The translations under genes were made by a program, and so were the position numbers. DNA of 64,000 nt from an uncultured Chloroflexia bacterium (GTDB taxonomy: Bacteria; Chloroflexota; Limnocylindria; QHBO01), in the NCBI GenBank assembly GCA_963839635.1, contig CAWIVT010000006.1, forward strand, positions 470,936-534,935, written 5' to 3'. The notes under the pieces were generated by a model. It was not told where the DNA came from, made no database searches, and saw only the letters and a list, made by a program, of their open reading frames with translations. Shown piece after piece: positions 36,882-40,724 of this stretch. Numbering within the stretch: position 1 is the first letter of the stretch; the number at the start of each line of letters is the position of its first letter.

Positions 36882-37809
36882 CTATGCGCCGCCGGCAAGC
36901 TCCGGGCAGGCGGGGTCCTCGTGCGGCAGCACCGGGCGGGCAATCACGCTGAAGCGGCGGTCGCCGTCGTCGGTCCACAGCGTCATCTGGGTCGCCGCGC
37001 TCATCTCCTCGAACCAGGCTGGCGCCGAGCGTCGCCGTCGACCACGCCGCAACGGGTCCCGTCGCCGAAGAAGGTCTCCTCGTCGCCGAAGGCTGCGGGG
37101 TCGTCATCCGTCGGCCACTCGCGAACCTGCTCGGGCAGGCCGCCGCCGTCGACCGGGCTCATCGGTCACGTCGCGGACGTAGAGCCGCATCGCCTCGGGC
37201 TCGTACGGCTGCCACCCCTCGGTCTCCCACGCGGACGCCGGCAGCCACGTGTCGAGCGTCATGAGGCCGTCGTTGAGCTGGCCCAGGATGCGATGCGCCT
37301 GCGACCTCGCCCGAGGTCATGCCCGGCGGCGGCTCCATGTCGGGCGGCACCGCGCCCAGCCCGTAAATGCTGATGGTCACCTCGCGGCCGTGCGGCGTCG
37401 AGGATGAAGACCGTGTTCGCCGCGTCGGCGACCATGCTCTGCGCCCCGTTCAGCTCCACGTCCGCGGTGAAAGCCCCGTCTCCTCGACCCCGCGCAGCAC
37501 CTCCTGGATGCCCTCCTCCGTGAGCGTGCGCTCGATGAGCGCCGGCAACGCCGGGCCGGGAAACTCGAGGGTCTGGGCGCCCTGCATGATCACGCGGCCG
37601 TCGCCCAGCAGGACGAACGCGGGCAGGCGGGTTGCCATGAACTGGACGGGCACGAATCCCCCGGTGTTGTCGACGACGAGGATCGCGTCGCTCCCGGTCG
37701 GATGCTCGATGCCGTCGGCGTCGCCTGACCCGCCGACGCTCGGCCGGAGGCGAGTCCCGGGCGATCCGCCACCCGTTGCGGTGCACGCGGCGATGACGAG
37801 GTGGCGCAT
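36882..37809 (-). pseudogene. Hypothetical lipoprotein, at least 5 frame changes as sequenced
   Basis: ATG at 37809 gives MRHLVIAACTATGGG (lipobox). I followed the reading through ORF 37450..38562 (ILVVDNTGGFVPVQFMATRLPAFVLLGDGRVIMQGAQTLEFPGPALP), ORF 37259..37786 (FTADVELNGAQSMVADAANTVFILDAA), ORF 37159..37380 (VTISIYGLGAVPPDMEPPPG) and my own translation down to ...RPVLPHEDPACPELAGGA, with the stop at 36882-36884. Confidence 0.5.
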
Positions 37810-37910
37810 GAGCGAGATGAGCACGGGAGGGTTCGGGGCGTGGCGTTCAAGGACGCAGACTGGACGCCACGCGGCGCACGCGCAGTTCCGCGGATGCGAC
37901 AATGGATCCG

Positions 37911-38979
37911 ATGCGCCGACTTCCCCCTCGTCCTCGCCCTGGCCTGGCTGCTGGCGACCCCCGCGTCGGGCTGGCACACGGCGCCGACGGCTCCAGCGCC
38001 GACGCTGCCCGGGGTGCTCCTCGCGTGGCGCTTCGACCCGCTCGTGGTCATCGGCCTCGTGGTGGCCGCCGCGGCTACCTGTGGGCGGTCCGGCGCGTGA
38101 ATCGTCGACACCCGGGCAACCCGCAGCCGGCGTATCGGTCCGGCTGTTCTGCGGCGGGCTCGGCGCGATCGCCTTGGCGCTGCCTCGCCGATCGAGGCGT
38201 ACGAGGGCGCGCTGTTCAGCGTGCACATGGTCCAGCACATGCTCCTCGAGCTGGTCGCCGCGCCACTGCTGCTGGCCGGCGCGCCGATCACGCTGGCGCT
38301 GCGCGTGGCCACGCCATCGGTGCGGCGCCGGCTGCTCTGGGTGCTCCACAGCCGCCGATGCGTGCGTCCGTCTCGTTCCCGGTGCGTGGCGTGGGTGCTG
38401 TTCGCGGCGGTGAACTGGGGCTGGCACTTCAGCGCGCTCTACGACCAGGCGCTCGAGAACCAGGCGCTCCACTACTTCCAGCACGCGACCTTCCTCGGCG
38501 CGGCGCTCCTGTTCTGGTGGCCGGTGATCGGCGCCGACCCGTCGCCGTGGCGCCTGCCCCACCCGGTCCGCCTCTTCTACCTGTTCCTGGCGCTGCCCCA
38601 GAACTCGTTCCTCGGCGTGGCGCTGTCAACGCCGGCACGGTGCTCTATCCGCACTACGTCACGAACGTGCGCGCGTGGGGCCTCAACGCCGCTCGACGAC
38701 CAGGAGCTGGGCGGCGTGATCATGTGGGTCTTCGGCGACATCGCCTTCCTGCTCGGCATGGCGATCGTGGTCGCCATGTGGGTGCGCCACGAGGAGCGAC
38801 GCACCGCCCGCCTCGACGCGCGGCTGGCCGCCGAGCGCGCCGCGCGCGGCGACGAGGCGTGGACGGCGAGTCCCGGCCGGGCTCCGGGCTCAGGCCAGCG
38901 GGAAGCGCAGGAGCGCGTCGACCGCGACCGCCGCGAAGAGCAGGGTCAGGTAGCTGATCGAGTAGCGGAACAGGTCTGA
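37911..38979 (+). pseudogene. ctaG: Cytochrome c oxidase assembly factor CtaG (Bacillus caa3_CtaG/PF09678 type), at least 6 frame changes
   Basis: Motif-bearing pieces lie in three frames: FPLVLALAWLL...WRFDPLVVIGLVVAAA, YLWAVRRVNRRHPG, VRLFCGGLGAIALAL, SPIEAYEGALFSVHMVQHMLLELVAAPLLLAGAP, AWVLFAAVNWGWHFSALYDQALEN..HYFQHATFLGAALLFWWPVIGADP, LDDQELGGVIMWVFGDIAFLLG. The first break is at a C-run near 37921-37925. The 3' end is uncertain. Confidence 0.7.
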
Positions 38980-39873
38980 TCGCGGCGCGACCGTTGGCCG
39001 CATCGGCTCGCAGCCGGAGCGGCGCCGAGCAGGAAGAGCGCCCCGAGCACGACCGCCGCGACGAGGTAGATCCAGCCCATCCCGGCGGCCGGCAGGAGCA
39101 GCAGGCTGACCGCGACGAGCGCGATCGTGTAGAGCACGATCTGGCGCGCCGTCTCGGCCTCGCCGCGAACGACCGGCAGCATCGGGACGCGGGCGGCGGC
39201 GTAGTCGCCGCGGTAGCGGAGCGCCAGCGCCCAGAAGTGCGGCGGCGTCCAGTAGAAGACGATGGCGAACAGAACGAGCGCGGGCAGCCCGACCTCGCCG
39301 GTCACGGCGGCCCAGGCCACGAGCACCGGGACGCAGCCGGCGGCGCCGCCGATGACGATGTTCTGCGGCGTGCTGCGCTTGAGCCACATCGTGTAGACGA
39401 AGACGTAGAAGCCGATGGCGCTCATCGCCAGCAGCGGCGCTCAGCAGGTTGACGGTCAGCGCCAGGAAGGCGAAGGCGACGACGCTCAGCCCGATGCCGA
39501 ACGCAGAGCGCCGCTGCGCGGGCTGACCGCGTGACGCGGCAGCGGCCGGTGGCGCGTGCGGCGCATGACGTCGTCGATGTCGCGGTCGACGTACATGTTG
39601 ATGGCGTTCGCGCCGCCGGCCGCCAGCGTCCCGCCGACGACCACCGCCGCCATGAGCCACAGCGACGGGATGCCGCCGCTCGGCGAGGACCATGGTCGGC
39701 ACGGTGGTCACGAGCAGCAGCTCGATGATCCGCGGCTTCGTGAGCGCCACGTAGGCGCGCAGCCGTGTCCAGGCCGCCCCGGACTCGCGAGTCGGGCTGA
39801 GGACGCGGTGCCTGCGACCTCCGACGGCCGCAGGCGGCGCGTCGCCAGCAGCAGCCAGACCGATGCGCCCCAC
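38890..39873 (-). pseudogene. ctaB: Protoheme IX farnesyltransferase (heme O synthase), at least 4 frame changes; possibly fused to the upstream ctaA
   Basis: Pieces: [25 protein letters not shown] (ORF 38890..39873), [38 protein letters not shown]...[30 protein letters not shown] (ORF 38946..39425), and the C-terminal [19 protein letters not shown] back in the first frame. Confidence 0.8.
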
Positions 39874-40724
39874 AGCGCGGCGCCGACGGCGAGGTGCGGC
39901 ACCACGAAGAGGGCCGACAGCCGCGAGACCACGTTGAGGCCGCCCAGCGCGATCTGCACCACGATCAGCACGACCAGCCAGAGTGCGAGCCGCCGCGCGC
40001 AGATGGCGTCGGTGGCGACCGCCGGATCGCGACGGCCGTCCAGACCACGAGGGCGGCGACGACCAGGCTCATGGCCCGATGCGCGAGCTGCACCGCCTGC
40101 TCGCTGCCAGCCAGGTCGGGCACGAGCGCTGCCGTCCATGAGCGGGAAGTCGGCGTAGGCGAGGCCGGCCCGGTGGCCGGTGACCCACGAGCCGAGCAGC
40201 ATCTGGGCGAAGATCGCGACGGCGGTGATGCCGGCCAGGCGGGTGAGGCGCCGGCCGCGCGTGCGCGGCGGCATCGGTCCACGGGTGGCCCGGTCGGCGA
40301 TGAAGATGGTCGGCCGCGAAGACGGTGAGCGCCATGCCGAGGTGCAGCGGTGACGAGCTCGGCTGCGCAGGCCCTCCATGACCACCCAGCGCCCGAGCAG
40401 CGACTGCGACGATGACGAGGCACGCCGGCCACCACGGCCGCGGCGAGGAGCGGTCGATCGCGCCGCCGGTCGGTCGCTGAACAGCGGTCCAGATGCCCAC
40501 GGACGCCGACCAGCGGGCCGACGAGGAACGCCGCGATCGAGGCGGTGGGTGTGCTCGATCCAGGCGTGGAGCTCGGCCGGCGGGATCAGGTCGTCGAAGC
40601 GAAGCAGCCCGGGCCAGGCGGGGCAGGCCAGGCCCGAGTCGGTGGCGCGCACCAGGCCGCCCACGGCGATCAGGACGAAGGTCGCCACGGCAGCGGCGAC
40701 CGCCAGCTTGGCGAATCGGGTCAC
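39795..40724 (-). pseudogene. ctaA: Heme A synthase (COX15/CtaA family), at least 5 frame changes; 3' boundary unresolved
   Basis: GTG at 40724 follows GAGAGGA. Pieces: VTRFAKLAVAAAVATFVLIAVGGLVRATDSGLACPAWPG, ELHAWIEHTHRL, AGITAVAIFAQMLLGSWVTGHRAGLAYADFPLMDG, LALWLVVLIVVQIALGGLNVVSRL..VVPHLAVGAALW. Intervening segments are in ORFs 40069..40500 and 39965..40435. Confidence 0.75.

Follow-up and report, generated by a model that had tools for sequence, protein, structure and literature searches.

We analysed a 64,000-nucleotide stretch of DNA from an uncultured Limnocylindria bacterium (assembly GCA_963839635.1, contig CAWIVT010000006.1, positions 470,936 to 534,935; hereafter the window), in which the genes for heme A synthesis and oxidase assembly are divided into many short reading frames. 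Comparison with related genomes indicates that these frame breaks are very probably an assembly artefact and no biological feature. A sequence-only reading of the window had weighed two explanations, local patches of low quality without relation to strand or gene, and a snapshot of respiratory pathway loss. The former is borne out by insertions and deletions (indels) that are private to this assembly, by normal substitutions under unrelaxed selection, and by essential genes that are broken in the same way; the same three observations speak against the latter.

Private indels are concentrated in a short patch

The patch and the genes that it covers are given by window position.

37017..40606, no strand: low-quality consensus patch ('indel hot-spot 2') with about 37 assembly-private frame-breaking indels, mostly 1-bp insertions
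36882..37809, minus strand: conserved lipoprotein gene, family unassigned, with start MRHLVIAAC and stop TAG at 36882-36884; intact in relatives
37902..38862, plus strand: ctaG (Caa3_CtaG assembly factor, PF09678), with 5 private insertions and 5 private 1-bp deletions
38890..39800, minus strand: ctaB (heme O synthase, UbiA), the C-terminal half of a fused ctaA-ctaB gene, with 7 frame-breaking private insertions
39801..40724, minus strand: ctaA (heme A synthase, COX15-CtaA), the N-terminal half of the fused gene, with a GTG start at 40722-40724 and about 11-13 frame-breaking private indels

For the main alignment, window positions 36600-41000 were aligned in MAFFT with the syntenic locus from seven congeners. 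Nucleotide alignments were used because tblastn queries from the relatives ran across frame changes in this 70% GC DNA and were unusable for counting breaks. The alignment confirms the frame breaks that the sequence-only reading had placed in these genes and reveals them to be commoner than was counted there. Between 36886 and 40724 there are 33 private insertion events (25 of 1 bp, 3 of 2 bp, 2 of 5 bp and 3 in-frame) and 7 deletions of 1 bp, also private; the frame is broken by 37 of them, namely 30 insertions and all 7 deletions. In the same alignment columns, the private events of any one of the seven relatives number 0-6, as against 40 in the window. The earlier estimate of at least 20 frame switches across 3.8 kb is a safe lower bound. 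Its minima for the single genes were 5 (lipoprotein), 6 (ctaG), 4 (ctaB) and 5 (ctaA), for which the alignment counts 6, 10, 7 and 11 frame-breaking events when coding sequence alone is considered. Two further ambiguous events lie in the fused gene, one at 39760 in the ctaB-ctaA linker and one at 40308 in the ctaA part. The lesions of the lipoprotein gene are private insertions at 37021, 37031, 37155, 37301 and 37392 and a deletion at 37471.

The private indels of the patch run from 37017/37021 to 40537/40606, and the nearest ones beyond it are at 34963 and 43654. A further comparison covered the whole window and four relatives; in it, the density of private indels is 9.6/kb in 36886-40724 and 0.35/kb outside both hot-spots, and uniform placement of the events is rejected (binomial P = 1e-23). 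The other cluster, hot-spot 1, has a density of 3.5/kb and includes private events at 3236, 3366, 3499, 3671, 3895, 3933, 4721, 5483, 5581 and 5697. Over the whole window, private insertions outnumber deletions by 53 to 9.

Within the patch, the indels are random with regard to codon phase and homopolymers and are uncoupled from substitutions. Insertions fall 10, 7 and 6 times at the three codon junctions, and the inserted base equals a flanking base in 7 of the 25 one-base insertions. The sequence-only reading had remarked that some breaks coincide with short C-runs; this does not explain the insertions, as not one of the 25 one-base insertions is found within a stretch of at least three identical bases. 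Around the indels no sequence motif is overrepresented, apart from a mild enrichment of GC-rich k-mers. A homopolymer or methylation-motif cause was considered and rejected, given the 7/25 neighbour matches and the lack of a standout k-mer.

The corrected genes carry no signature of decay

We then corrected the sequences by dropping private insertions and padding private deletions. Corrected in this way, the lipoprotein gene, ctaG and ctaA-ctaB are fully open without an internal stop. At the amino acid level they are 0.70-0.84 identical to the three closest relatives, which is also the range among those relatives themselves, and the identity of the lipoprotein to four more distant relatives (0.54-0.59) is within the relatives' own range. 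The ratio of nonsynonymous to synonymous substitution rates (dN/dS) on the frame-corrected sequences is 0.19-0.31 in pairs that include the window and 0.15-0.28 in pairs of relatives, which is similar and gives no signal of decay.

At sites where the other seven sequences are invariant, the frequency of private substitutions at codon positions 1 and 2 is 0.016-0.022 in the window and 0.011-0.093 in the relatives. The window has about 40 private indels against 43 such substitutions, and the relatives have 0-6 indels against about 50-120 substitutions. Some 40 indels fixed neutrally should bring with them several-fold more substitutions, including stop codons; the absence of any such load argues for error rather than decay. 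The lineage that bears the indels thus displays neither relaxed selection nor an excess of substitutions. The syntenic locus is present in 18 congeners, with open reading frames (ORFs) listed for three, and it is intact in every relative examined.

Heme A and heme O synthases are fused

The sequence-only reading had described four adjacent broken genes. Its gene identifications stand; its count does not, since ctaA and ctaB form one gene and three genes are therefore affected. That ctaA and ctaB are one gene follows from the relatives, where they are a single fused frame of about 600 aa (about 640 codons in the ORFs of three congeners, filtered by G+C at third codon positions, GC3), from two-domain public proteins and from published fusions. 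The fused frame corresponds to 38890-40724 (minus strand) in the window and to L010:3672-5627, L011:1386-3356 and L012:3729-5636 in the loci of the three congeners. The two-domain CtaA-CtaB architecture of about 600 aa is common to thousands of public proteins, and such fusions have already been described for Chloroflexi, Deinococcus-Thermus and others (PMC8239418, PMC9145763). The relatives are identical in layout to these known fusions, with COX15-CtaA at the N terminus and UbiA/heme O synthase at the C terminus, and we see no difference.

Profile searches support each assignment. In the window, UbiA (PF01040) scores 190 bits (cut-off 34.2) in a match that spans 3 TGA codons; an intact relative scores 228 bits with PF01040 and 424 bits with the heme o synthase profile NF003349 (cut-off 246). 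COX15-CtaA (PF02628) is recovered in two pieces of 34.6 and 33.7 bits (cut-off 29.9), compared with a relative's single match of 139 bits over residues 60-332, followed by UbiA at 379-629. After indel correction, the Asp-rich prenyl-diphosphate binding motif of CtaB reads as it does in relatives, and CtaA likewise keeps its His motifs unaltered. For ctaG, the Caa3_CtaG profile PF09678 gives 201.6 bits in the window and 256.9 bits in a relative. Similarity of ctaG to the relatives stops near 38862, and the last frame as assembled is open until 38979. Searches of Pfam and NCBIfam with the lipoprotein returned no family match. The lipoprotein gene (about 310 aa) is divergent from ctaG, and its position is kept in the syntenic loci of the seven aligned congeners. 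It could be an uncharacterised oxidase-assembly factor.

Comparable patches break essential genes across the genome

The source genome comprises 2.44 Mb in 8 contigs with about 70% G+C, and has a marker completeness of 56.7%. At this G+C content plain ORF lists are too noisy, and we instead used GC3 filtering and a Viterbi frame tracker trained on the codon usage of the source genome, in which a 2-kb bin with 8 or more switches is called hot. The tracker finds 2.0 switches/kb in the source genome, where 138 of 1216 bins are hot; these form 63 patches, 2-22 kb long, that are spread over all 8 contigs. The same tracker gives 1.15-1.32 switches/kb in four high-completeness congeners (4 x 68 kb), with 0 of 136 bins hot, including bins of 73-76% GC. 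The excess of frame switches amounts to about 1,800 genome-wide.

Hot bins become more frequent with rising G+C, from 0-4% of bins below 68% G+C to 26% at 72-74% and 44% above 74%; the heme A patch itself has 72-75% G+C. High G+C alone is insufficient: in the window, several bins are clean at 73-74% G+C.

Other patches fall on genes that a cell cannot lose. The patch at C2:156001-161534 is divided into 26 frame pieces and holds an operon with rpsH, rplF, rplR, rpsE, rpmD, rplO, secY, adk and map, and that at C1:28506-32516 is divided into 27 frame pieces and holds alaS with downstream sequence. Neither secY nor alaS has another copy in the genome, and their profile matches are split into 3 and 6 stretches, respectively. 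The lesions are therefore not confined to dispensable genes. They are genome-wide, independent of gene function, and accompanied by low completeness despite contiguity. Congeners rated 91-96% complete have a genome size similar to this 57% one. Low completeness at comparable size is what shattered marker genes would yield, and the 57% estimate very likely reflects broken marker genes rather than absent DNA.

Origin of the frame breaks

Very probably, the lipoprotein gene, ctaG and ctaA-ctaB are intact genes of an aerobic soil Limnocylindria bacterium that were miswritten by the assembly. The source is a highly contiguous, probably long-read metagenome-assembled genome (MAG) whose consensus is mostly good (about 0.35 private indels/kb in this window) and which very probably retains roughly 1% spurious single-base indels, mostly insertions, in some 63 patches of 2-22 kb, with 37017-40606 among them. 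Low depth or mixed strains may have left read support locally poor in an assembly of the Nanopore-only Flye plus Medaka type, with high G+C as a presumed risk factor. Patch lengths of 3.6 kb here and 2-22 kb elsewhere, together with an indel rate near 1%, would fit very few reads or mixed strains. The few-contig congeners are Microflora Danica ('MFD') MAGs, which are Nanopore-only Flye assemblies with one round of Medaka polishing (PMC12313526). The source genome resembles the indel errors of Nanopore-only MAGs in combining high contiguity with low marker completeness, and in its assembly-private single-base indels that split genes whatever their function or strand (PMC12313526). It differs in that the errors here are strongly patchy, 27-fold over the window background, and are mostly insertions outside homopolymers.

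Several points weigh against this explanation. Similar patches were expected in other low-completeness few-contig congeners, and the three examined gave little of the kind, with only 3/40, 0/30 and 1/40 hot bins. The dN/dS of pairs with the window is slightly higher than that of relative pairs. We infer the sequencing technology of the source assembly from that of its congeners. No second, independently made assembly of this strain was found, and the nearest CtaA-CtaB among 5.8 billion proteins is 88% identical. Finally, insertion-rich errors outside homopolymers are unlike the textbook Nanopore profile, which is dominated by homopolymer deletions.

The principal biological alternative is genuine pseudogenisation, in which heme O and heme A synthesis and the assembly of CuA/CuB would be lost and the structural genes of the aa3-type oxidase left stranded. 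We consider this very improbable, even though the frames are broken in the deposited sequence, no second copy of ctaA or ctaB was found in the assembly, and ctaD is broken as well. Real decay by reductive evolution, as in Mycobacterium leprae and recently host-restricted bacteria, is accompanied by nonsense and missense substitutions and by relaxed selection, and essential genes are spared. The window is like such genomes in having many frame-broken genes whose protein sequence is still recognisable. It is unlike them in that about 37 indels have arisen without nonsense or added private substitutions, at a dN/dS of about 0.2-0.3 as in the intact relatives, and in that the sole copies of secY and alaS and six ribosomal protein genes, which cannot be dead, are struck by like patches. 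Respiratory gene content points the same way. The only complete heme-copper oxidase locus found in the source genome is the ctaC/ctaD locus of this window, and searches of this genome and of 40 congeners found neither cytochrome bd nor another complete oxidase. For cytochrome bd the search covered subunit I in these 41 genomes of the genus; the assembly is incomplete, and absence is no proof. If heme A synthesis were truly lost, the cell would be without a complete terminal oxidase of the kinds searched for, which argues against pathway loss, and the genus appears to rely on a heme A-dependent oxidase. Slightly less probable still is that at least part of the indel load is real, in a heterogeneous soil population of which a sub-population is giving up heme A synthesis and, along with it, the one complete terminal oxidase locus found. 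If this were true, it would mark the early stage of a move away from aerobic respiration, in a genus where all other members keep the locus.

Programmed recoding, or an unusual decoding rule that carries the cell across the frame changes, can practically be dismissed. Conservation of the protein sequence across the breaks is all that speaks for it; against it stand roughly 34 breaks in three genes, both +1 and -1 and with no common slippery motif, that are absent from all relatives, which encode the same proteins in one frame. A more specific version of the assembly artefact would attribute the errors not to low depth but to reads of two or more co-occurring strains that were collapsed into one consensus retaining extra bases. 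This would account for the dominance of insertions (53 vs 9) and for inserted bases that differ from their neighbours in 18 of 25 cases, and microdiversity has been named as a limit on the quality of soil MAGs (PMC12313526). We nonetheless regard it as possible but rather unlikely, since there is no excess of insertions beside third codon positions, insertions beside columns variable among relatives are no commoner than expected (0.83 vs 0.77), and private substitutions in the patch are not elevated.

Consequences for annotation

The value of the finding is that of a quality flag only. In this MAG, gene callers will record ctaA-ctaB, ctaG and many further genes as missing or pseudogenised, and metabolic reconstructions would then wrongly deny heme A synthesis and oxygen respiration to this Limnocylindria lineage. 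The genome-wide map of 63 patches, with risk rising with G+C, can be used for masking or re-polishing the assembly.

Neighbouring oxidase genes and further observations

Two features to the left of the patch belong to the same oxidase locus.

35678..36787, minus strand: ctaC (COX2 with an additional C-terminal cupredoxin domain), intact, the left border of the patch
34963, minus strand: single private 1-bp insertion that divides ctaD into two frames, located by alignment

The sequence-only reading had described ctaC as intact and ctaD as broken once near 34965. Both descriptions agree with the comparison with four relatives, in which ctaC has 0 private events and ctaD the one insertion at 34963. 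The CuA site of CtaC is intact (CAEFCGTSHAEM). The extra cupredoxin domain of about 90 aa has a complete set of type-1 copper ligands (PHNV ... FICDAHPLDM) and may be a fused blue-copper electron-entry domain that replaces the cytochrome c of caa3 oxidases. Full-length matches are found only in Limnocylindria/Chloroflexota and a few Actinomycetes MAGs, and a literature search found no published description of a CtaC with such a cupredoxin domain.

Elsewhere in the genome, the only other oxidase hit is a weak one, to a 387-aa ORF at C4:248000-249163 (L037:1456-2619, plus strand) that matches the C-terminal third only of COX1 (49 bits) and has a fused cytochrome c domain. No N-terminal COX1 part was recognised upstream of it, and it is either a divergent heme-copper oxidase relative or a fragment. 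A third UbiA-family gene in the window (59339-60081, minus strand) is in three frames, and its private insertions at 59490 and 59948 are assembly errors of like kind, beyond both hot-spots.

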